44,835 bases of DNA, taken from sequence record SRR9188677_160. One strand, written 5' to 3'. Below, one piece after another: positions 34,542 through 44,835 of the stretch. A program made the position numbers and the translations under genes. A model generated the notes under the pieces. That model worked only from the letters and a program-made list of their open reading frames with translations. It was not told the origin of the DNA and did not search any database. Position 1 is the first letter of the stretch. Each line of letters starts with the position of its first letter.

Positions 34542-35777
34542 TTATTCGTAGATAAGGTGTGTTAAGAGGCCATCCCTGAGTTTGGGTTCAAACCAGGTAC
34601 TTTTCGGGGGCATTACATTACCACTGTCAGCAATATCAAATAACTGATCAATGGTAACCGGGTACAAACTGAAAGCCACAGCCATTTCGCCACTGTCTAC
34701 TCTTTTTTCCAGTTCTCCCAATCCGCGGATCCCTCCCACAAAATCAATCCGTGTATCGGTACGCTGGTCTTTGATACCCAGCAGTTTATCCAGCACATTG
34801 TTAGATAGTATGGTTACATCCAAAACACCGATCGGATCATGGGTATAGGTACCGGATTTGGCAGTCAGTTTGTACCAGTTCTTATCCATATACAAACCAA
34901 ATGTGTGCGGGTTCTCCGGACGGTAAGCACCACTAGTAAATAATTCTACCGTAAACTGTTTACTCAGTTCTTTGATCAGTGATGTAGGAGATAAACCGTT
35001 CAGGTCTTTCACCACCCGGTTATAATCCATGATATATAACTGATTGGAGGGGAAAAGCGTGGTAAGGAAATAATCTGCACCCGTTGTGGCTGTGTCTACC
35101 AAAGACTTGCGCACTTTAGCGGCCGAAGCGGCGCGGTGATGACCATCTGCGATATACGTGCAGGGAATTTCTTTCTCAAAAATAGCCGTGATCTGTTCTG
35201 CTACCGTATCATTGTTCACGATCCAGATGGTGTGCTGTATCCCATCATCAGCTACAAAATCATATACTGCCGATTTGGTTTCTTTCCAGTTGTTGATGAG
35301 GGCATCTATCCCATCATGGTTACGGTAAGCCAGAAAAACATTTCCGGTTTGGGCACCGGATGTTTTGATATGGTTGATCCTGTCCTGCTCTTTCTCCGGA
35401 CGGGTAAACTCGTGTTTTTTAATAATATCATTCTCATAATCATCCACACTACTCACGCATACCAATCCTGTTTGTGCACGTCCGTTCATTACCAGCTGGT
35501 AGATATAATAACATTCTTTGGATTCGCGGAAAAGAATATCGCGCTGGATAAACGCCGCCAGGTTTTCTTTGGCCTGCTCGTACACAGCCGCATCATGTAC
35601 ATCCACCGTATCAGGCAGATCTATTTCGCTTTTGGTGATATGCAAGAAAGAACTGTGATTTCCCTGCGCTTCCGTTTTTGCTTCTGCGGAACTTAATACA
35701 TCGTATGGGCGACTGGCCACCTGTTTGGCCAACTGGGCCTGTGGACGTAATGCTTTAAACGGTCTGATACTTGCCAT
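34542..35777 (-). CDS. DUF1015 family protein
   Basis: IRPFKALRP, IKKHEFTRPEKE, YIADGHHR, MPPKSTWFEPKLRDG. Confidence 0.9.
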   Translation of the reverse strand: MASIRPFKALRPQAQLAKQVASRPYDVLSSAEAKTEAQGNHSSFLHITKSEIDLPDTVDVHDAAVYEQAKENLAAFIQRDILFRESKECYYIYQLVMNGRAQTGLVCVSSVDDYENDIIKKHEFTRPEKEQDRINHIKTSGAQTGNVFLAYRNHDGIDALINNWKETKSAVYDFVADDGIQHTIWIVNNDTVAEQITAIFEKEIPCTYIADGHHRAASAAKVRKSLVDTATTGADYFLTTLFPSNQLYIMDYNRVVKDLNGLSPTSLIKELSKQFTVELFTSGAYRPENPHTFGLYMDKNWYKLTAKSGTYTHDPIGVLDVTILSNNVLDKLLGIKDQRTDTRIDFVGGIRGLGELEKRVDSGEMAVAFSLYPVTIDQLFDIADSGNVMPPKSTWFEPKLRDGLLTHLIYE

Positions 35778-35844
35778 TGCGCAAATATCAGTAAATAATT
35801 ATAAATGAAAAGTTATGAACTGACCGAAAAGGAGGGTCAATGGT

Positions 35845-36786
35845 CTATTCTATCGCCCTAACAAACATTTGTAAAAGGCGTTGTGCCTTATCGCTTCGCT
35901 GAAGAATCCACTGAAACAGGTAAATACCCACCAGTGCACAGAGAATGCCGGCCAGCACGTCCAGTACATAATGATGACTGGTATAAACCGCTGCGAACCA
36001 GATCCCTGCCATCACCAGCGCAAAGAAAAGATTGATCCAGCCCAGCTTATAACGCGTTGCATAATATAATACTATCAGCGGATAGGAAGAGTGCAGCGAT
36101 GGCATGGCCGCAAATACATTGGAACTTTTGCTATATAAGGAATGAAAAATATCTACCTTAAAAAAAGCATCAAAGCGTTCCAGGCCGCCGGTATTACCCG
36201 GTGTAGCTGCCACAAAATCAAACCCCTGCAACTGCACATACCAGGGCGGTGCGGCCGGGTAAATATAATAGATCACAAAACCCAGCAGGTTCACCAACAG
36301 AAAAGTGAGCGAGAAATGAAGAAAAGCCTCCCTGTTTTTGAAAAAGAGATACGCTGCAAAAGCCAATGGTACCGGCACCCAGCATAGATAAAAGAAACCG
36401 GTTAATACATCCAGAAAAGGATGCTGGTGTGTGATCCAGAATTCATTGGGGGTAACGGTGCGCCCATCCTGCGTAATACCGAACAATGCTTTTTCAGTGT
36501 TGTACAGACTTTCGATATGAACCTCCTGAAACAGGTAGTTCGGGAAGGCTTTCATGAAATCAAAAATGATCCAGAAAATAATGAAGATAGAGAAGCCGGT
36601 AATAAATTTCCGGGTGAGGCGCGAGCCGAAATACAGCGCATTGAAGAGCAGTATCAGGTATACCTGGTCTGTTTTAAAACCAATCAGAAAATAAGACAGC
36701 AACAGGTATATCAGCGAGATAGCAGCTACCGCCAGCAACTGGCGGGTGGTATAAAAAGAGTCTGGATCTTTCTCTGCAACACTCAT
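35845..36786 (-). CDS. Aur1/inositol phosphorylceramide synthase-like PAP2 membrane protein
   Basis: Multiple TM segments; YPAAPPWY, FAAMPSLH, HHYVLDVLAG motifs; located in the MIPS operon. Confidence 0.85.
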   Translation of the reverse strand: MSVAEKDPDSFYTTRQLLAVAAISLIYLLLSYFLIGFKTDQVYLILLFNALYFGSRLTRKFITGFSIFIIFWIIFDFMKAFPNYLFQEVHIESLYNTEKALFGITQDGRTVTPNEFWITHQHPFLDVLTGFFYLCWVPVPLAFAAYLFFKNREAFLHFSLTFLLVNLLGFVIYYIYPAAPPWYVQLQGFDFVAATPGNTGGLERFDAFFKVDIFHSLYSKSSNVFAAMPSLHSSYPLIVLYYATRYKLGWINLFFALVMAGIWFAAVYTSHHYVLDVLAGILCALVGIYLFQWILQRSDKAQRLLQMFVRAIE

Positions 36787-36790
36787 GGCA

Positions 36791-38122
36791 TCAGGGTTTG
36801 AACCTTTCCATTACTTCTTTACCGGTAGCCACGTCAATCCCTTTCAATTCCATGTATACTACATTGGGCGACCAGAATGTACCGCCATCTACTTTCACAA
36901 ACAACCGGTTTAACTGCGCCGGCTTTTTGTTGATGGTGGCATACACACGGTATTTATTATCTCTGGGAGAAGGCATTAAGGTAAAAGTTTGTTTACGGTA
37001 AGAAACAAAATGAAGTTTATAAGTACCATCGCCCATCGCCTGCGATTTCATTCCATAGGCAAATACGCGCTGGATATAATTCAGTTCTTTGCGCATACCA
37101 CCTTCCTGGTAACGGATCCAGAACACATGTACGGGTGATTCACTATTCAGCTTTCCGTTTTTTTCATAGTTTAATTCGCAAACAATGGTATTGGTATTGG
37201 CATTACGCTGCAGGTAAAACAACTGGTATGGGTTTCCGGTAGGTACCGGAAAGGTATCCTGTGGTTCTATGGCTACAGTTGAGGGTAAGGCTGCGGTTGC
37301 GGACGGCTTCTTTCCCTGATCTGCCACAACAGGTGTAAAAGCGATACCACTGCTTAGCAGGATCAATAATCCTGTTAGTAATGTGTGATTGCTTTTAGGC
37401 GCTGTTGCTTTTGCGGCATCCCTGTCATCCAGTGTTTTTTTGGCACCGGTCAATCTTTTGATAGCGGTGATATTGGTTAACACTGCCATTAAAGCAAGGG
37501 GTATGGTAAAAATAGACATGGTCTCCAGCACATGAAAAGAAACACCCGGCAGATACCATTTATAATCCCCGCCCAGATAATTACCAGTAATACCACAGGC
37601 TATAGCCGTGATCCCGATCAGTATCACCCGCTCTGGTCTCTGCATCAGCCCGTCTTTACATTCAATGCCCAATCCTTCTGCCCTTGCGCGGGTATAACTC
37701 ACCATCATCGATCCGATCATGGCTATAAAAGCAAAAATGGAACTTAGAAAATAATGGTGCCCCACCAGGTAGTAACAGATTCCGAAAAACATAACCAGTT
37801 CGCTGTAACGATCCAGCACAGAATCGTACAAAGCACCAAAGGTAGAACTCATATTACCCAGCCTGGCCACCTGGCCATCCAGCATATCAAATAAACCGGC
37901 AAACAGGATCAGGGCACCCGCCCAACCTACATAAGAAAGGTCGCCGCGGTGACCTATTTCGGCACCTTTGATAAAGATCACTGCTACACCTATATTCAGT
38001 ATAAAACCGATGGTAGTAACCGCATTAGGTGTAAGCCCGGCTTTGATAAGCATTTTTACAAAAGGATCAATTACAACATAAATCCCTTTCTGTATCCGTA
38101 TTCTGAGTGGAACTTTTTCCAT
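36791..38122 (-). CDS. CDP-alcohol phosphatidyltransferase (probable phosphatidylinositol-phosphate synthase) fused to a C-terminal DUF4833-like domain
   Basis: Signature DMLDGQVAR...GALYDSVLD, SYTRARAEG, RPER; C-terminal LFYLQRNANTNTIVCELN...FWIRY...IQRVFAYG. Confidence 0.85.
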   Translation of the reverse strand: MEKVPLRIRIQKGIYVVIDPFVKMLIKAGLTPNAVTTIGFILNIGVAVIFIKGAEIGHRGDLSYVGWAGALILFAGLFDMLDGQVARLGNMSSTFGALYDSVLDRYSELVMFFGICYYLVGHHYFLSSIFAFIAMIGSMMVSYTRARAEGLGIECKDGLMQRPERVILIGITAIACGITGNYLGGDYKWYLPGVSFHVLETMSIFTIPLALMAVLTNITAIKRLTGAKKTLDDRDAAKATAPKSNHTLLTGLLILLSSGIAFTPVVADQGKKPSATAALPSTVAIEPQDTFPVPTGNPYQLFYLQRNANTNTIVCELNYEKNGKLNSESPVHVFWIRYQEGGMRKELNYIQRVFAYGMKSQAMGDGTYKLHFVSYRKQTFTLMPSPRDNKYRVYATINKKPAQLNRLFVKVDGGTFWSPNVVYMELKGIDVATGKEVMERFKP

Positions 38123-38147
38123 TAACCTTTTTTTCTATCGTAAAGTA

Positions 38148-40697
38148 TTAAAAATCAAATTTAAATCTGGCCCTTATCCCCAATGTGGCTACGTAAGGAT
38201 TTTCGAGATAATTAAACCTTTTCACCAGGTCTACCCTGATCAGTTTAAAAATATTGGCGATACCTACACTTCCTTCAATATAAGGTTTCTTATTCAGGGC
38301 AAAGGTAGTAGGCGATCCTTCAAATAAAGGATATTTGATCAGCGAAGGATCTTTGGCAGGATCATTCTCATCCCTTACACCCCCGTACAATACTTTCACC
38401 GACACCACTTCGCGCAGTTTCAGTTTTTTCAGCAGGGGAACCCGGTTAAAGAAGAGTCCGTTAAAATGGTGATCCACAGAAATTCCCAGAAAGCGATCGC
38501 TCACAAATTCCTGGAAGTTCATCAGGTTATACGAATTGAGCTGGTAAGCATAGGTCTGGTTGGCGCGGTGTACTGTCATCAGCGGATAAGGAATTTTCCC
38601 GAAAATATATCCGCCCTCTACCACCAGATCGCTGTAACCCAGCTGCGACATATACGCACGCTTTTCAAAGCGGGCACTGATATTCTGGTAATTATATTCG
38701 CTGTTCAGCAGACCCTTTACACCTGCAATAAAACGCAGGGTGAATATGGGATATTTATTAATGATAGGAATACGGTATACCTTACCCTGGTAAAACTGCT
38801 CCTTGGGTGCCCAGCGCAACTCGCCGGAGAATTCAGAAGTGATGATTTTATTTACATTCACGAGACTTCCGCTTACCTCTTTGTTATAAACAATGGCACC
38901 GGCCGGTTCCTGTTTCCAGTTTTTAAAGCCCAGCGAAAATGACAGGTGATTCTCAAATTCTTTTACAAAATCGACCTTGAAATTGCTGTTGTATAACCAC
39001 TTATCGTTTTTACCTCTTTTGAACGAGAGGAGGAAGTTATCTTCTGCCACAAACTGCAGTTCCTGTCCGGGAATTTTGGTATCGTGCTGGTAACTTACCC
39101 GCACATAATTCAGCGGGAAGGTATAGATCGATTTGTTGTTAAGCGAGTAAGTAGTACTCAGAAACCCTTTCCAGCGTTCATCTTTAAATCCATATGCACC
39201 ATAGGTTTCAAAATATAACCGTTTACTGAATTTAGGGGTAGTTCTTCCACCCAATCGCAGTTTAAACCCTTCTACCGGGTTAAAGCTGTAGAAAGCAGCT
39301 GCGGGTCCGATTTCAAAGGGCCCTACAGAGGTATAACCGGCCAGCAAAAAAGTAGCAATGGCAAGGGTTCTGCGGAAAGAAGGCATTTTTTCCAGACTGT
39401 CGATATTACTGTACACTTTCGATTCTGTATGCGTAAGTGTATCATGCCTTCCGGCTTTCCAGAAATCATCCGGTAGCTTATCAGCTTTCTCCTTTTTTAC
39501 CAGTGCCGGCCCATCGTACACAGTATCCGGCAAAGCCTGGTTGATTTTGAATTTGCGGTATGATACGGTGCGCTCTCCAAAAAATCCCGTACCGGAACCT
39601 TTGGTTACACTGGCATCTGCCATGATATTACTGCGGCTCAGGTGGTATCGGTTGTCTTCACTTTTTTCAAAGTCGAGGTCGATATGCAGTTCCCGCACAA
39701 AATTGAGGTTGGCATTTTTGCTCAGGAACATACTGATTTTCTCCACTGAATAGTTACCATCCAGTGTTACCCACATGTTTCCGCGAAACAGCAGATCATT
39801 GGTATTCCGGGGGGTAAAATAAATCTTGATCAGTTTGTGTCCATTTGCATCCACCGTGGTATCCCTGATATAATACATATAAAAGGTAGGTGCCAGATCG
39901 GCAATAGGGCTCAGAAACTGGTAGGTAAACAGCGGAATATCATTGTCATAGATATCAACATCCATATACAACCGGTTCAGGTAACTGCTTACACCCGCGT
40001 CATCGATGTACTCACCTAAATTCACCCGCTTCTGACCGGTAACAATGGTTTTTGTTTTTTCGGGTTTCTTACGGAAATACTTTTGCGAAAGGGTTTCTTC
40101 CAGGTAAACAGGTAATAAAGCCTTACCCTCCAGTTTGGTGGTATCCCTGTTTTCGAAAAGAAATTTATAGTTCTTGAGTAATTTAGCGTTGCTCAGTTTA
40201 TCTGAAACATTACTGATAGATACCTGCATTTTTTCGTACTGCTCATACTGTACGTAATTATAACTGTCGGTACGGTTTAGGGGTTTGTTGGCTATCACCC
40301 TTCTGATCAATTCTACGGCCGGGTTACCTTTGTTACGATAGGGTGCTCTTTTGCGTGTAGTTACCGTAACACTGTTGATCGCTTTAGGATCTGTTTCCAG
40401 TTCAAAATTCAGGGTCTGTGTAATACCCGGTGTAATCGGCTTCAGGATAGTCAGATATCCTATATAGGTTACCTGCAGTGTAGCAATTTTACCGGAAGAA
40501 GTGAGCTTGTATCTACCCAAACTGTCTGTCACTGTTCCACGGCCACCTTTCAGTACCACGCTTACATATTGAAGCGGCTGTTTACTATACATATCAGTAA
40601 CCACACCCTGCACTACGGTTTGTGCAAAGCCCTGTACTATTCCGGTGAATAATATCAATCCCAGCAATACCCCTCTTCTCAATTGTTTTCTTGTCAT
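38148..40697 (-). CDS. Outer-membrane protein: carboxypeptidase-regulatory-like N-domain plus DUF5686-like beta-barrel
   Basis: Signal peptide; VQGVVTD..PL.YVSV...GTVTDSLGRY..YIGY N-domain; NPAVELIRRVI; FNPVEG.KLRLGGRT; terminal aromatic beta-signal RFKFDF. Confidence 0.8.
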   Translation of the reverse strand: MTRKQLRRGVLLGLILFTGIVQGFAQTVVQGVVTDMYSKQPLQYVSVVLKGGRGTVTDSLGRYKLTSSGKIATLQVTYIGYLTILKPITPGITQTLNFELETDPKAINSVTVTTRKRAPYRNKGNPAVELIRRVIANKPLNRTDSYNYVQYEQYEKMQVSISNVSDKLSNAKLLKNYKFLFENRDTTKLEGKALLPVYLEETLSQKYFRKKPEKTKTIVTGQKRVNLGEYIDDAGVSSYLNRLYMDVDIYDNDIPLFTYQFLSPIADLAPTFYMYYIRDTTVDANGHKLIKIYFTPRNTNDLLFRGNMWVTLDGNYSVEKISMFLSKNANLNFVRELHIDLDFEKSEDNRYHLSRSNIMADASVTKGSGTGFFGERTVSYRKFKINQALPDTVYDGPALVKKEKADKLPDDFWKAGRHDTLTHTESKVYSNIDSLEKMPSFRRTLAIATFLLAGYTSVGPFEIGPAAAFYSFNPVEGFKLRLGGRTTPKFSKRLYFETYGAYGFKDERWKGFLSTTYSLNNKSIYTFPLNYVRVSYQHDTKIPGQELQFVAEDNFLLSFKRGKNDKWLYNSNFKVDFVKEFENHLSFSLGFKNWKQEPAGAIVYNKEVSGSLVNVNKIITSEFSGELRWAPKEQFYQGKVYRIPIINKYPIFTLRFIAGVKGLLNSEYNYQNISARFEKRAYMSQLGYSDLVVEGGYIFGKIPYPLMTVHRANQTYAYQLNSYNLMNFQEFVSDRFLGISVDHHFNGLFFNRVPLLKKLKLREVVSVKVLYGGVRDENDPAKDPSLIKYPLFEGSPTTFALNKKPYIEGSVGIANIFKLIRVDLVKRFNYLENPYVATLGIRARFKFDF

Positions 40698-40703
40698 TTT
40701 TTA

Positions 40704-41075
40704 TTATTTAAACACAAATCGTTTTTGTAAAACATAATTATATAATATCCCAACTGCCAGCGATACTGTAGCTTTTGAGACTACATAGCTATAACCGGCA
40801 AAATGAGTAAGTAAAAAAACACCACCCGATACCAGTACGAGGTTGCCAATCCAGACCAGGATATAGCGTAAGGCCTGGAAGTGAATTTTTTTACTTTTTG
40901 CTTTAAATACCCAGGAGCGGTTCATCAGAAAATTCACTACCCCTCCGCTGATCGTTCCCAACACGCTGGCCAGCAGGTACCAGCAACCAAACACTTCTTT
41001 TAGTACAATGGTCATCGTAAAATCCACTAATGTGGCCGTGATAGATGCTGCCTGTGCTTTTACGAATGTTGCCAT
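40704..41075 (-). CDS. GtrA family small membrane protein
   Basis: 123 aa with four TM segments; ATLVDF, VNFLMNRSWVF, NYVLQKRFVF. Confidence 0.88.
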   Translation of the reverse strand: MATFVKAQAASITATLVDFTMTIVLKEVFGCWYLLASVLGTISGGVVNFLMNRSWVFKAKSKKIHFQALRYILVWIGNLVLVSGGVFLLTHFAGYSYVVSKATVSLAVGILYNYVLQKRFVFK

Positions 41076-41521
41076 GCAATAATTACTAGTATCAGTTGTA
41101 ACAATAGGTTGGTATAAACACCCGCCAGTATATCATCTGTCATCACACCCCAACCTCCGGGTAACGATTCTGCTTTACGGATATACAACGGTTTTACAAT
41201 GTCAAAAAAACGGAACAGTAACAGTGCCGCCAGTATCCATGGCCAGCTAACCGGTATGAAGAGCAGGCTGATACACATTCCTGCTGCCTCATCAATTACT
41301 ACCCGGCTGCTGTCTTTCCCCCAGTCTTGCTCTACTACATAAGCCGCCCATATTCCAATAATGATGATGGTTGCTGTTGCAGCTATCATCGTTTCTTCTG
41401 TAACACCATATGCAATAGCCTTCCACCAGAGAAAACAGGTTACCATGGCGGCGATTGTTCCGCCACCTTTGATAAACCCGATACCGAGGCAGCTGGCTGT
41501 TATTTTAGGTAACTGCATCAT
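41060..41521 (-). CDS. PgpA-family phosphatase (probable PIP phosphatase)
   Basis: KDSSRVVIDE, FRFFDIVKP, GGWGVMTDDILAG; overlaps the MIPS stop (ATGA) and the gtrA start. Confidence 0.88.
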   Translation of the reverse strand: MMQLPKITASCLGIGFIKGGGTIAAMVTCFLWWKAIAYGVTEETMIAATATIIIIGIWAAYVVEQDWGKDSSRVVIDEAAGMCISLLFIPVSWPWILAALLLFRFFDIVKPLYIRKAESLPGGWGVMTDDILAGVYTNLLLQLILVIIAWQHS

Positions 41522-42852
41522 AAAGCTTCTACCAGATCCTGGTAGTAATCCAATCCCAGGTGTGTGATCAGATCCTCACCCATGATATGGCGCAGTGTAT
41601 TCTGCAGTTTGATCAGCTGTTTGAAAATATCATGCTCCGGACGCAGGCCGGGTGCTGTTTGCGGCGATTTGAAATAGAAGGATAACCATTCCTGGATGCC
41701 CGACATGTCTGCGCGTTTAGCCAGATCCATGAACAGGGCCAGGTCTAACACAATCGGTGCTGCCAGTATCGAATCGCGGCAAAGGAAATTGATCTTGATC
41801 TGCATACCATAACCCAACCATCCGAAGATGTCGATATTGTCCCAGCTCTCTTTGTTATCGCCATGCGGCGGATAGTAGTTGATCCGTACTTTATGGTACA
41901 GATCGCCATACAAAGCAGGATTGATTTCGGGTTGCAGAATATCTTCCAGCACACTTAGTTTGGAAACTTCTTTGGTTTTGAAATTATCCGGATCGTCTAA
42001 TACCAATCCATCACGGTTACCCAGAATATTGGTAGAGAACCAACCCCTGATGCCCAGCGCACGTGCGTGTAAACCCGGTGCTACAATGGTTTTCATCAGT
42101 GTTTGTCCGGTTTTGAAATCTTTACCGCTGATAGGCGTTCCGGTTTCTTTGGCCAGCTCCATCAGCGCAGGAATATCGCAGGTAAGATTTGGCGCACCAT
42201 TGGCAAACGGAACACCTAAGGTAAGTGCGGCATAGGCATAGATCATGCTGGGAGAAATGGCAGGATCATTGTTGCGCAAACCTTCTTCAAAAGATTCGAT
42301 GGTCTGGTGTACCGCTGATTCTTCGATATATTTTTCAGTAGAACCACACCATACAATTACTACGCGACTGCAATCATGGGCCTCTTTGAAATTTTCGATA
42401 TCATTCATCACTTCTTTGGCCAGATCATATTTGGTAGCGGCTTTTTTAACATGTGTACCATCGAGGTTTTTTACATAAGATTGATCAAACACCGCTTTCA
42501 TCGGAACAATGGCTTCCAGTTCGGGTTTGATAGAATGCAATAAACCGGGTTCCAGCACTTTGGCATTCATGGCTGCTTCATACACATTATCAGCATATAC
42601 ATCCCATCCCCCAAAAGCGATATTGTTGAGTTCGGCCAGTGGTACAAAATCTTTGATCAGTGGATACCGGTTCTCTGTACGCTTACCCAAACGGATATTA
42701 CCCATCTGCGTAAGGGCACCGATAGGTTGAGATAATCCTTTGTTCACCGCAATAACGCCGGCGATCATGGTGGTGGCAACTGCTCCCAATCCGGGTAACA
42801 AGATGCCTAATTTCCCTTCTGCAGGTTGAATGCTCTCTTTCATAGTAGTCAT
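41518..42852 (-). CDS. ino1: myo-Inositol-1-phosphate synthase
   Basis: GLGAVAT, FGGWD, GKDFKTGQT, NILGNRDG, GDNKESWD, CRDSILAAPIVLDL, SFYFKSP. Confidence 0.95.
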   Translation of the reverse strand: MTTMKESIQPAEGKLGILLPGLGAVATTMIAGVIAVNKGLSQPIGALTQMGNIRLGKRTENRYPLIKDFVPLAELNNIAFGGWDVYADNVYEAAMNAKVLEPGLLHSIKPELEAIVPMKAVFDQSYVKNLDGTHVKKAATKYDLAKEVMNDIENFKEAHDCSRVVIVWCGSTEKYIEESAVHQTIESFEEGLRNNDPAISPSMIYAYAALTLGVPFANGAPNLTCDIPALMELAKETGTPISGKDFKTGQTLMKTIVAPGLHARALGIRGWFSTNILGNRDGLVLDDPDNFKTKEVSKLSVLEDILQPEINPALYGDLYHKVRINYYPPHGDNKESWDNIDIFGWLGYGMQIKINFLCRDSILAAPIVLDLALFMDLAKRADMSGIQEWLSFYFKSPQTAPGLRPEHDIFKQLIKLQNTLRHIMGEDLITHLGLDYYQDLVEAL

Positions 42853-42879
42853 ATTTTTAATTCTGTTAAGGTCAGTTGA

Positions 42880-43485
42880 TTATTGAACAGGATCGGCTTT
42901 TAATCCACGGATCATGATAGCCATGATCGATTCCATGCGGGGTTCCAGTTTGGCATAACGGGCGTCAATAAACATATCTCTCTCCAACCCACGGAGCGAG
43001 CTTACCATCACCGATGGCAGTATGCCCAGTTCCTTCCCTATTACTTTACTGAATTCACCATTGTTGACCCCGTATTTCAGGATTTCTTTTACCAGTTTGA
43101 TCTCCTGGGTATCATATTCTGTATGCAAATGTTTCATACAGTGCAGGTTCTCCTGCATTTCGCCCTTTACTATCTTGTATAGATTAGCGTATTTCTGAAC
43201 GGCTTTGATCTTGGTAAGCGTGAACGCGCGGAGTTTGTCTTCAGCAGTTACCGCTTTGGCTACTGCCTGTTTCACCTGGTTAAACACTTCGCCCATCTCC
43301 TTCAGGATCACGGCATCGAAGATCTCTTCCTTACTGCAGTAATAATAATAGAGTGTGCTCTTACCCTTACCCATGGCTTTGGCAATATCTTCCATGGTCG
43401 TCTTCTTCACGCCATACTGCCTGAACAGTTGCTGTGCTTCCCGCAGGATCTCTTCCCGGATAATATCGTCTTTTGTTGGAATCAT
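42880..43485 (-). CDS. TetR/AcrR family transcriptional regulator
   Basis: ILREAQQLFRQYGVKKTTMEDIAKAMGKGKSTLYYYYCSKEEIF HTH; ATG at 43485. Confidence 0.93.
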   Translation of the reverse strand: MIPTKDDIIREEILREAQQLFRQYGVKKTTMEDIAKAMGKGKSTLYYYYCSKEEIFDAVILKEMGEVFNQVKQAVAKAVTAEDKLRAFTLTKIKAVQKYANLYKIVKGEMQENLHCMKHLHTEYDTQEIKLVKEILKYGVNNGEFSKVIGKELGILPSVMVSSLRGLERDMFIDARYAKLEPRMESIMAIMIRGLKADPVQ

Positions 43486-43487
43486 AC

Positions 43488-43544
43488 TTTCGACCAAAAT
43501 CGTTTTTCGGTCCAAAATTACACCAAAAGTTGTTACCACAGCAA
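43488..43544 (-). promoter_or_regulatory. Promoter with overlapping palindromic operator for the tetR-ino1 operon
   Basis: Minus-strand TAATTTTG (43520-43513) with TTG 21 nt upstream; dyad TTTCGACCAAAA-TCGTT-TTTCGGTCCAAA at 43488-43516. Confidence 0.65.
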
Positions 43545-43556
43545 CCGCTTATCAAA

Positions 43557-44627
43557 TTATCCCTTTCGCGTTGCGAAAACTTTCATCAGGTCGCAGAAGA
43601 ACTGAACACTTTCCAGGGGGAGGGCATTGTACATGCTTACACGCACACCACCTACGGTTCGGTAGCCCTTCACCCCGATCATCCCTTCTTTTTTGCAGAG
43701 GTCGAGGAAAGGTGCTTCCAGTGCGGGATCGCTAAGGAAGAAAACGGCATTCATCTGACTGCGGTCTTCCCTGGCTACCAACGCTTTAAACACTGGCAGG
43801 CTGTCGATGGTATTATATAATAGTGCAGATTTTTCGAGTGTTCTTTTCTCCATTTCGGCCAGTCCGCCCTGTTCCAGAATCCAGCGCAGGGTTAACATAC
43901 TTACATATACAGCAAAAACAGGTGGTGTATTCATCAATGAGCCCGCTTCGATATGTTTCTGGTAATCCATGATGGTAGGAATCCGGCGACGGATTTTTCC
44001 CAGGATCTCTTTTTTTACCACCACCAGATTCACACCCGCTGCGCCCATATTCTTCTGGGCACCGGCATAGATCAGTGAAAACTTTTTAAAATCCATCGGT
44101 CTGCTGAAGATATCACTGCTCATATCAGCCACCAATGGTATAGAAGTATCCGGAAACTGGTGCCACTGGGTACCTTCTACTGTATTATTAGAAGTGATAT
44201 GCAGATAGCTGGCATCAGCCGGAATCACGGGTTGCTTCTGTATATAGGTATGTTGTTTATCCGAGCTATCGGCCACCACTTGCACATTCCCGAACAGGGA
44301 AGCTTCTTTGGCCGCCTTTTTTCCCCAGATGCCGTTATCACAATACGCGGCAGTTTCTCCCTCATCCAGTAAATTCATCGGTACCTGCATAAACTGGGTA
44401 GTGGCACCACCATGCAGAAACAGTACTTCATAACTATCATCCAGCTGCATCAGTGTTTTTACGGATGTGATGGCTTCTGTCAATACCTCGCCAAACCAGG
44501 GCGTACGGTGTCCGATCTCCAGTATTGATAAGCCGGTATCATTGAAATTGAGAATAGCCCTAGAAGCTTCTTCCAGTACAGATTGTGGCAGAATAGACGG
44601 ACCAGAATTGAAGTTATGCAGTTTCAT
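43557..44627 (-). CDS. serC: Phosphoserine aminotransferase
   Basis: NFNSGPSILP, GHR, HGGATTQF, NNTVEG, DMSSD, YAGAQKNMG, NTPP; ATG at 44627 (the longer ORF extends into the repeat). Confidence 0.96.
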   Translation of the reverse strand: MKLHNFNSGPSILPQSVLEEASRAILNFNDTGLSILEIGHRTPWFGEVLTEAITSVKTLMQLDDSYEVLFLHGGATTQFMQVPMNLLDEGETAAYCDNGIWGKKAAKEASLFGNVQVVADSSDKQHTYIQKQPVIPADASYLHITSNNTVEGTQWHQFPDTSIPLVADMSSDIFSRPMDFKKFSLIYAGAQKNMGAAGVNLVVVKKEILGKIRRRIPTIMDYQKHIEAGSLMNTPPVFAVYVSMLTLRWILEQGGLAEMEKRTLEKSALLYNTIDSLPVFKALVAREDRSQMNAVFFLSDPALEAPFLDLCKKEGMIGVKGYRTVGGVRVSMYNALPLESVQFFCDLMKVFATRKG

Positions 44628-44660
44628 ATCGATTGCTTGTGATGCGAAAGTAAGGATTTC

Positions 44661-44835
44661 GGGAGACGTGAATCGTGAGACGTGAATCGTCAATCGTGAG
44701 ACGTGAGGCGTGAGTGGTCTGTAGTGAGTAGGTAATTTGAGTTAGGGGCAGTTCCTACTATTTCGCTCAGAATAACCAAACAAGCCGACCCAAGAGCCAA
44801 AACTCACGACTCACGTCTCACGATTGACGACTCAC
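44661..44835. repeat. Large inverted pair of 7-mer tandem arrays
   Basis: CGTGAAT CGTGAGA CGTGAAT CGTCAAT CGTGAGA CGTGAGG ... ACTCACG ACTCACG TCTCACG ATTGACG ACTCAC (runs off the window). Confidence 0.8.

Follow-up and report, generated by a model that had tools for sequence, protein, structure and literature searches.

A DUF5686 protein with a predicted Omp85-type barrel in a Bacteroides-type inositol-lipid operon, and its non-exclusive link to sphingolipid genes in Bacteroidota

The closest described relative of the locus analysed here is the BT_1522-BT_1526 cluster of Bacteroides thetaiotaomicron (PMC9246714 and PMC8791184). In it, BT_1526 is the myo-inositol-phosphate synthase (MIPS), BT_1523 the phosphatidylinositol-phosphate (PIP) synthase (PIPS), BT_1525 the PIP phosphatase and BT_1522 the phosphatidylinositol-dihydroceramide (PI-DHC) synthase (PMC9246714). 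Mutants of the GtrA gene BT_1524 had no thin-layer chromatography phenotype in one study (PMC9246714) and less inositol ceramide (IPC) and more phosphatidylinositol (PI) in the other (PMC8791184). The 44,835-nucleotide stretch from sequence record SRR9188677_160 (the window, whose positions are the coordinates used throughout) contains, at 35845..43544, an operon with the same five families in the same order, MIPS, PgpA, GtrA, PIPS and PI-DHC synthase. It differs from the B. thetaiotaomicron cluster by a TetR gene in front, an outer-membrane protein of the family DUF5686 between gtrA and PIPS, and a DUF4833 domain fused to PIPS. A previous sequence-only reading had described a tightly coupled minus-strand operon of seven genes with gaps of 27 nt or less, or overlaps, and the open reading frames (ORFs) bear this out. 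All seven are on the minus strand, as are the other genes and protein parts of the window given below, and when taken from their first start they are separated by 27 nt (tetR-ino1), 6 nt (gtrA-DUF5686), 25 nt (DUF5686-PIPS) and 4 nt (PIPS-IPC synthase), or overlap by 4 nt (ino1-pgpA) and 16 nt (pgpA-gtrA). Every domain call of that reading was also upheld by Pfam and NCBIfam profiles.

The MIPS gene (Ino1, BT_1526 type; 41518..42852) matches PF07994 with 350 bits and PF01658, and has the GLGAVAT nucleotide-binding motif. The PgpA-like phosphatase (BT_1525 type; 41060..41521; PF04608, E 6.7e-36) would be the PIP-diacylglycerol (PIP-DAG) phosphatase according to the role described in PMC9246714, and the GtrA-like membrane protein (BT_1524 type; 40704..41075; PF04138) a possible helper of a PI flippase. 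The fused gene (36791..38122) starts with a BT_1523-type PIPS that has a CDP-OH_P_transf domain, scores 396.6 bits against NF052561 (cut-off 350) and carries at residue 79 the catalytic motif DxxDGxxAR...GxxxDxxxD, defined as DX2DGX2AR...GX3DX3D in PMC9246714. The last gene codes for an Aur1-like PAP2 protein (BT_1522 type, inositol-phospho-dihydroceramide synthase; 35845..36786; PF14378, PAP2_3) that keeps the catalytic motifs PPWY, MPSLH and HHYVLD and matches the PI-DHC synthase model NF052609 over its full length (339.2 bits, E 2.3e-101), although below the equivalog cut-off of 480, in contrast to PIPS, which passes its own. All five genes of the BT-type cluster are thus together in the window, and the profiles, the NF052561 pass and the motifs support the proposed identity as the Bacteroides-type pathway to PI/PIP-DAG and inositol-phospho-dihydroceramide. 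The core genes are those of the published pathway, and by homology they would form the same products.

The DUF5686 protein (849 aa; 38148..40697) combines PF13715 (CarboxypepD_reg) and PF18939 (DUF5686, 201.6 bits, cut-off 39.2), and its structure was predicted from a 136-sequence alignment with a pLDDT of 94.2 and a pTM of 0.86. Residues 459-849 (38151..39323) are predicted to form a C-terminal barrel of 16 strands with the BamA/TamA fold and a terminal Phe, the strand count being our own from DSSP of the model. Among 48,161 chains the best matches of the barrel were Sam50 (Z 19.3), TamA (Z 18.7, root-mean-square deviation 4.0, 283 residues aligned), Toc75 (Z 18.0) and BamA (Z 17.7). The top 18 rows were all Omp85-family or SAM/TOC/BAM proteins (Z 15.3-19.3), the first unrelated barrel came at 13.8, and a second structural search gave a similar ranking. 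The supposed outer-membrane barrel nature of the protein therefore finds support in the predicted model, in the form of an Omp85-type barrel. Residues 27-103 (40389..40619) correspond to a SusC-type N-terminal extension with a transthyretin/Ig-like fold (SusC extension 9hfj: Z 13.0, root-mean-square deviation 1.8, 78 aligned), also detected by profile matches to SusC N-termini (E 4e-20). It is followed at residues 107-112 (40362..40379) by a putative TonB box with the family consensus L-x-E-V-x-V/I, which closely resembles the SusC TonB box DEVVV(V/T/I) (PMC10350073). The pattern was found in 78 of the 136 aligned homologues, and the copy of the window is written I-N-S-V-T-V.

Between these parts, residues 146-398 (39504..40262) are predicted as a periplasmic beta-sheet domain that is possibly LolA-like. 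A first, shallower comparison with a 32-sequence alignment of LolA and LolA-like proteins gave a probability of 4%. With a deeper alignment hhalign scored 26.7-27.1 over 109 columns (probability 12-22%), compared with 10-12 for reversed controls, 11-16.5 for slices of the barrel and no more than 21.2 when the columns were shuffled 30 times. PF17131 was matched by two of 50 family members (best E 0.005), and the weak profile similarity is that of residues 272-396. We take this possible LolA likeness as a lead and not as an assignment. The fold searches made with the whole model were taken up by matches to the barrel and the N-terminal domain. Sequence searches of the PDB returned only chance matches for the middle domain (E at least 0.12) and, for the barrel protein, matches confined to the N-terminal extension; a search of the Atlas with the barrel protein returned DUF5686 itself alone.

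The likeness to the Omp85 superfamily (TamA, BamA, Sam50, Toc75, FhaC/CdiB) covers the barrel fold (Z 15-20 over about 260-320 residues), the 16 strands, the long loop between strands 11 and 12 and the terminal Phe. Loop 6 of the BamA/TamA class carries a VRGF/Y motif. The DUF5686 protein differs in that this motif was absent from the loop-6 slice in all 136 sequences, in which N-E-F-x-x-D is conserved instead, in its identity of 7-12%, and in the lack of any PF01103 or POTRA match in a scan of the whole protein, the model showing long beta-strands where POTRA domains would be; it has instead the N-terminal extension, the TonB-box-like motif and the separate beta-domain. With SusC-type TonB-dependent transporters it shares the N-terminal extension (PF13715) followed by an E-V-x-V motif, but no Plug or TonB barrel match was found with Pfam in the 849 residues, 16 strands are modelled and the barrel is nearer to Omp85 (Z 18-19) than to SusC (Z 10.1). 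With LolA/LolB-like carriers (PF17131) the likeness is the weak profile similarity already described. The Omp85 and LolA-like set BBJ25/BBJ28 of Borrelia (PMC13078400) offers the same idea, a LolA-like part feeding an Omp85 barrel, but here both parts would share one chain and the LolA similarity is weak. Finally, Caulobacter has transport-type genes (lptF2, lptG2 and lptC2) within a sphingolipid biosynthesis locus (bioRxiv 10.64898/2026.04.12.717747); those encode Lpt paralogues of the inner membrane whose requirement was demonstrated, whereas the window codes for an unrelated outer-membrane protein known from its sequence and model.

The neighbourhood of the barrel gene in other genomes links it to lipid synthesis. 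In 78 loci collected with the barrel as seed, many from close kin and some ending at contig edges, we found ino1 in 49, pgpA in 52, gtrA in 50, PIPS in 56, IPC synthase in 54 and DUF4833 in 65. The gene order recurs among relatives including the fusion of PIPS with DUF4833, which is present in 40 of the 78 and is therefore not an assembly slip. A genome with a barrel 97% identical to that of the window (G001) encodes, elsewhere, a serine palmitoyltransferase (SPT) above the cut-off. Of 121 genomes of Sphingobacteriales, 93 gave a match to the barrel, 94 to SPT and 67 to PIPS, and the barrel was within 3.5 kb of 65 of the 67 PIPS genes; barrel and SPT were together in 91 genomes, the barrel alone in two, SPT alone in three and neither in 25. 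Related genomes share genes and these counts are not independent, so we set aside as evidence the corresponding Fisher p of 2e-20. The usual layout, a sphingolipid super-operon reaching from spt to IPC synthase, is spt, GNAT, epimerase, ino1, (pgpA), (gtrA), barrel, PIPS, DUF4833, fatty-acid hydroxylase and IPC synthase, where from the pathway in PMC11087976 the GNAT would be bCerS and the epimerase CerR.

Lipid genes were present at 24 of 60 hand-picked loci. At these 24 there were spt in 21, the bCerS-like GNAT in 21, PIPS in 22, IPC synthase in 22, DUF4833 in 21, ino1 in 19, gtrA in 13 and pgpA in 11, indicating that the barrel outlasts gtrA and pgpA. It is also kept at seven loci where an alternative set of NTP transferase, CDP-alcohol phosphotransferase and HAD genes replaces the headgroup genes (L011, L013, L063, L064, L187, L232 and L234). 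In the order of Spirosoma (151 genomes) all five non-seed barrel matches were in lipid clusters. Some of the more remote DUF5686 relatives are likewise near envelope-lipid genes: at about 35% identity they adjoin lptB in L153 (9232-9969) and L154 (5371-10967), the latter with kdsD and tatC as well, and in L152 one is near PAP2 and acyltransferase genes. The linkage of this DUF5686 subfamily to sphingolipid and inositol-lipid genes is thus supported as strong and not due to chance, yet not exclusive.

Several variants of these clusters deserve mention. In the Sediminibacterium-like loci L011 (10205-14694), L013, L063 and L064 the alternative cluster (HAD, LPG-synthase TM, CDP-alcohol phosphotransferase and NTP transferase) lies on the opposite strand and replaces the BT-type one. 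L232 and L234 have a cluster spt-GNAT-epimerase-barrel-NTP transferase-CDP-alcohol phosphotransferase-LPG-HAD that lacks ino1; both have a matching extra gene of about 305 aa before DUF4833, which in L232 (1443-2360) is a PfkB kinase, possibly an inositol kinase. Five BT-type clusters (L025, L026, L058, L060 and L067) keep pgpA, gtrA, PIPS and IPC synthase with ino1 absent from the locus, and it was not found in any of the five genomes either. In L066 (12190-14751) mlaE, an ABC ATPase and mlaD come directly after the sphingolipid super-operon, and mmpL-family genes are near the alternative-type ino1 clusters of L124 and L125.

Other observations weigh against a system dedicated to inositol lipids. 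DUF5686 is a general family, present in 111 of 151 Bacteroidota genomes, with two to four copies in each of five genomes, and B. thetaiotaomicron itself encodes one somewhere in its genome (control search). In Sphingobacteriales, 85 of the 150 close-homologue places listed (of 151) are not beside PIPS, and at 36 of the 60 hand-picked loci there was no lipid gene, several being near MarR or a second Omp85 protein. In that order paralogues as close as 52-56% sit by such genes. A MarR gene follows the paralogue in L193, L196, L197, L204, L207, L213 and L217, and in L196, L204 and L210 the close paralogue is head-to-head with a second Omp85-family gene (PF01103). In a phylum-wide sample the barrel was within about 7 kb of none of 30 non-seed ino1 loci; just one of them (L123) had a full BT-type cluster, with both barrel and DUF4833 missing. 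The barrel was also missing at eight of nine PIPS loci in the order of genome G035 (taken as Bacteroidales from its family content; PIPS matches in nine of 201 genomes) and at eight of nine non-seed BT-type PIPS loci in Chitinophagales (the best nine of 12 matches, the three weakest left out), some contigs being short. No SPT match was obtained in the barrel-holding isolate genomes G003 and G005 nor in G493, and G003 had no ino1 match either. Against lipid insertion by the barrel, the LolA-like match has just 4-22% probability, and for TamL, another Omp85 protein of Bacteroidota, a role in lipid transport was discounted (PMC12045153).

A streamlined Sediminibacterium-like clade points in the same direction. 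At its 14 loci the barrel lies between serC and a DUF1015 gene, accompanied by DUF4833 at 12 and by no inositol gene; ino1 was not found in the four genomes searched for it, nor a CFB-type SPT in the nine searched. These are metagenome-assembled genomes of 1.4-2.4 Mb, which we count as one evolutionary event, and four representatives group together with support 1.0 in a tree of 132 sequences (30 loci were dropped as redundant or short, and the short L079-L114 were left out too). The inositol genes have been lost from the locus itself. At depth, the same tree gives no supported branching between paralogues linked to lipid genes and those that are not. The dedicated three-part system of GtrA, DUF4833 and DUF5686 suggested by the sequence-only reading is not supported by these data, gtrA being at only 13 of the 24 lipid loci, DUF4833 resembling no known lipid carrier (best Z 3.1), the barrel missing at all 30 ino1 loci, and barrel and DUF4833 persisting in a clade where neither ino1 nor SPT was found. 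The vesicles of B. thetaiotaomicron contain IPC (PMC8791184), yet DUF4833 was not found in this species in a control search, which argues against it too. The association of the barrel with inositol-lipid genes is strong in Sphingobacteriales (65 of 67 PIPS genes), and in the phylum-wide sample none of the 30 ino1 loci showed it. The system is accessory and lineage-specific and not an obligatory part of the pathway.

The DUF4833 domain of the fused gene (36803..37219; PF16117, 165.9 bits, cut-off 23.1) is mostly beta and is preceded by a hydrophobic, signal-peptide-like linker at residues 247-270 of the fusion (37313..37384). By hydropathy and inspection such a stretch was found ahead of the domain in 40 of 40 fused copies, and stand-alone DUF4833 proteins begin with a similar one in 31 of 32 distinct cases, suggesting that the domain is likely exported and periplasmic, either tethered or cleaved, by means of a retained signal-like segment. 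Since this segment separates the two halves in all 40 fusions, we rejected the idea that fusion serves to keep DUF4833 at the catalytic side of the synthase. The domain had been proposed as a periplasmic carrier: export is favoured, but the carrier part is not. Its model (pLDDT 91.1) matched none of 48,161 chains at Z of at least 5 (best Z 3.1), a PDB sequence search gave nothing and the Atlas no usable match. A LolA- or lipocalin-like carrier was considered and set aside with no profile match to LolA-like families, a missing match that does not exclude such a family. In L077 the fused sequence includes an unknown residue and is the counterpart of the split genes of L069; it is probably an assembly artefact. 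DUF4833 is present in six of 151 Bacteroidota genomes, none of the five non-seed copies being beside a barrel and two of the five being near gtrA and a CDP-alcohol phosphotransferase. In these two, L145 (3628-7540) and L146 (6682-10377), the cluster consists of SDR, PhyH dioxygenase, CDP-alcohol phosphotransferase (Pfam match in L145), GtrA and DUF4833 with no ino1 or barrel nearby, and may make another headgroup lipid.

We tentatively favour the DUF5686 protein as an accessory, likely TonB-linked protein for lipid insertion into the outer membrane. By homology with B. thetaiotaomicron, for which these steps were shown, MIPS would provide inositol phosphate, PIPS PIP-DAG and PgpA PI-DAG, and the Aur1-like enzyme would transfer phosphoinositol onto dihydroceramide, PI-DAG and PI-DHC being made presumably at the inner membrane as known for the homologues. 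GtrA could help PI to reach the synthase, a point on which the published BT_1524 mutants disagree. The finished inositol lipid or sphingolipid would then likely be taken up by the possibly LolA-like periplasmic beta-domain, from which the Omp85-type barrel would release it to the outer membrane, probably using energy supplied by TonB, and DUF4833 would be a likely periplasmic accessory on its retained signal segment. The operon encodes no bridge from the inner membrane and no LolCDE-like transporter. Barrel, N-terminal extension and TonB-box-like motif are predictions from model or sequence, and we infer lipid binding, the direction of movement and the coupling to TonB. A bolder version, which seems unlikely to us, would make DUF5686 an unrecognised TonB-energised class of Omp85 with a built-in LolA-like domain, this subfamily being the missing outer-membrane insertase for Bacteroidota sphingolipids, DUF4833 its partner in the periplasm, and further paralogues acting on different envelope lipids.

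The barrel could instead be a general envelope-assembly factor, an Omp85-type insertase or a receiver of surface lipoproteins, one paralogue of which is co-transcribed with the sphingolipid genes as the membrane needs both. The characterised Omp85 proteins among the structural matches are indeed protein insertases or translocators, LolA-type folds carry lipoproteins, as was also proposed for the Borrelia LolA-like and Omp85 set (PMC13078400), DUF5686 is near-ubiquitous and multi-copy, and the pair of barrel and DUF4833 is retained where the searches for ino1 and SPT gave no match. We consider this unlikely, though it deserves to be kept in mind: no POTRA match was obtained with Pfam, the loop-6 VRGF/Y is absent (0 of 136), and the retention of this copy in lipid operons of four orders and through pathway swaps is not accounted for.

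Retention of the pair in a clade where the biosynthesis genes were not found would also fit TonB-driven import or retrieval, in which the barrel draws a lipid or precursor (inositol phosphate, PI or ceramide) inward from the medium or from the cell's own outer membrane. Both the N-terminal extension and the TonB-box-like motif belong to importers, the five pgpA-gtrA-barrel-PIPS-IPC synthase loci whose genomes gave no ino1 would need inositol from outside, and L232 and L234 lack ino1 at the locus and have the extra gene of about 305 aa (a PfkB kinase in L232). TonB-dependent importers have a plug domain and a 22-strand barrel. The 16 strands and the absence of a plug are unlike them, most carriers make their own inositol phosphate (ino1 at 49 of 78 and 19 of 24 loci), and B. 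thetaiotaomicron takes up little inositol (PMC9246714). Import looks rather improbable to us. The remaining alternative, that barrel and DUF4833 are passengers which entered the operon once in an ancestor and were carried along without acting on these lipids, has the smallest weight in our opinion. Most of the linked cases belong to a single order or a small number of clades, support for the deep branches of the tree is poor, and there are clusters that have neither gene (L123, L170-L177); against this, the pair stayed in place when gtrA, pgpA and ino1 were lost and when another headgroup pathway took over, DUF4833 was fused to PIPS in several lineages, and outside barrel loci it appears again by gtrA and a CDP-alcohol phosphotransferase in two of five cases.

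The core pathway had been described before, and among Sphingobacteriales the expanded operon is a common arrangement. The description of the arrangement as unusual has to be restricted accordingly, all the more as PMC9246714 mentions a carboxypeptidase-regulatory-like protein (homologue of BT_1527) near both cluster types. Full-text searches, which miss most subscription papers, returned no functional study of DUF5686, which two papers name once each, no mention of DUF4833, and for BT_1527 with inositol the Heaver paper and its preprint alone. Within the literature searched, neither the architecture predicted for DUF5686 nor its close though non-exclusive association with sphingolipid genes appears to have been described. 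A recent preprint (bioRxiv 10.64898/2026.04.12.717747, 2026) gives the periplasmic and outer-membrane steps of sphingolipid transport as unknown and raises an alternative pathway for Bacteroidetes with a single lptFG copy. The locus is a concrete candidate for the outer-membrane step in culturable bacteria (Pedobacter, Mucilaginibacter and Sediminibacterium). Whatever the cargo, an Omp85-type barrel equipped with the parts by which SusC importers dock to TonB would be an architecture not described before, and about three quarters of the sampled Bacteroidota genomes have a member of the family.

Regarding the rest of the window, the TetR-family regulator (42880..43539; PF00440, TetR_N, E 1.3e-13) has its more likely start at ATG 43482, which lies 31 nt beyond a TAnnTTTG motif at 43520. 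The same-strand run is longer than the seven genes, since serC (43557-44693, gap 17 nt) and a DUF1015 gene (34542-35777, gap 67 nt) flank the operon. The same two genes directly flank barrel and DUF4833 in the streamlined clade, indicating that the cassette sits inside a serC-DUF1015 pair. The closest loci are mostly labelled Sediminibacterium or Chitinophagaceae, with barrel identities of up to 97%; the top-ranked one is labelled Caulobacter, which is inconsistent with its neighbours. In three RNA-labelled runs from one sample there is a relative whose operon is about 94% alike throughout, but their contigs reach 171 kb and DNA may be present, so that we make no claim of transcription. A contig of run X1 is identical to the window across 35000-44800 and may be its source. 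At 44650-44730, at the start of serC, there is a short inverted-repeat-like element that matches many other contigs of the same run and is likely a dispersed intergenic repeat.

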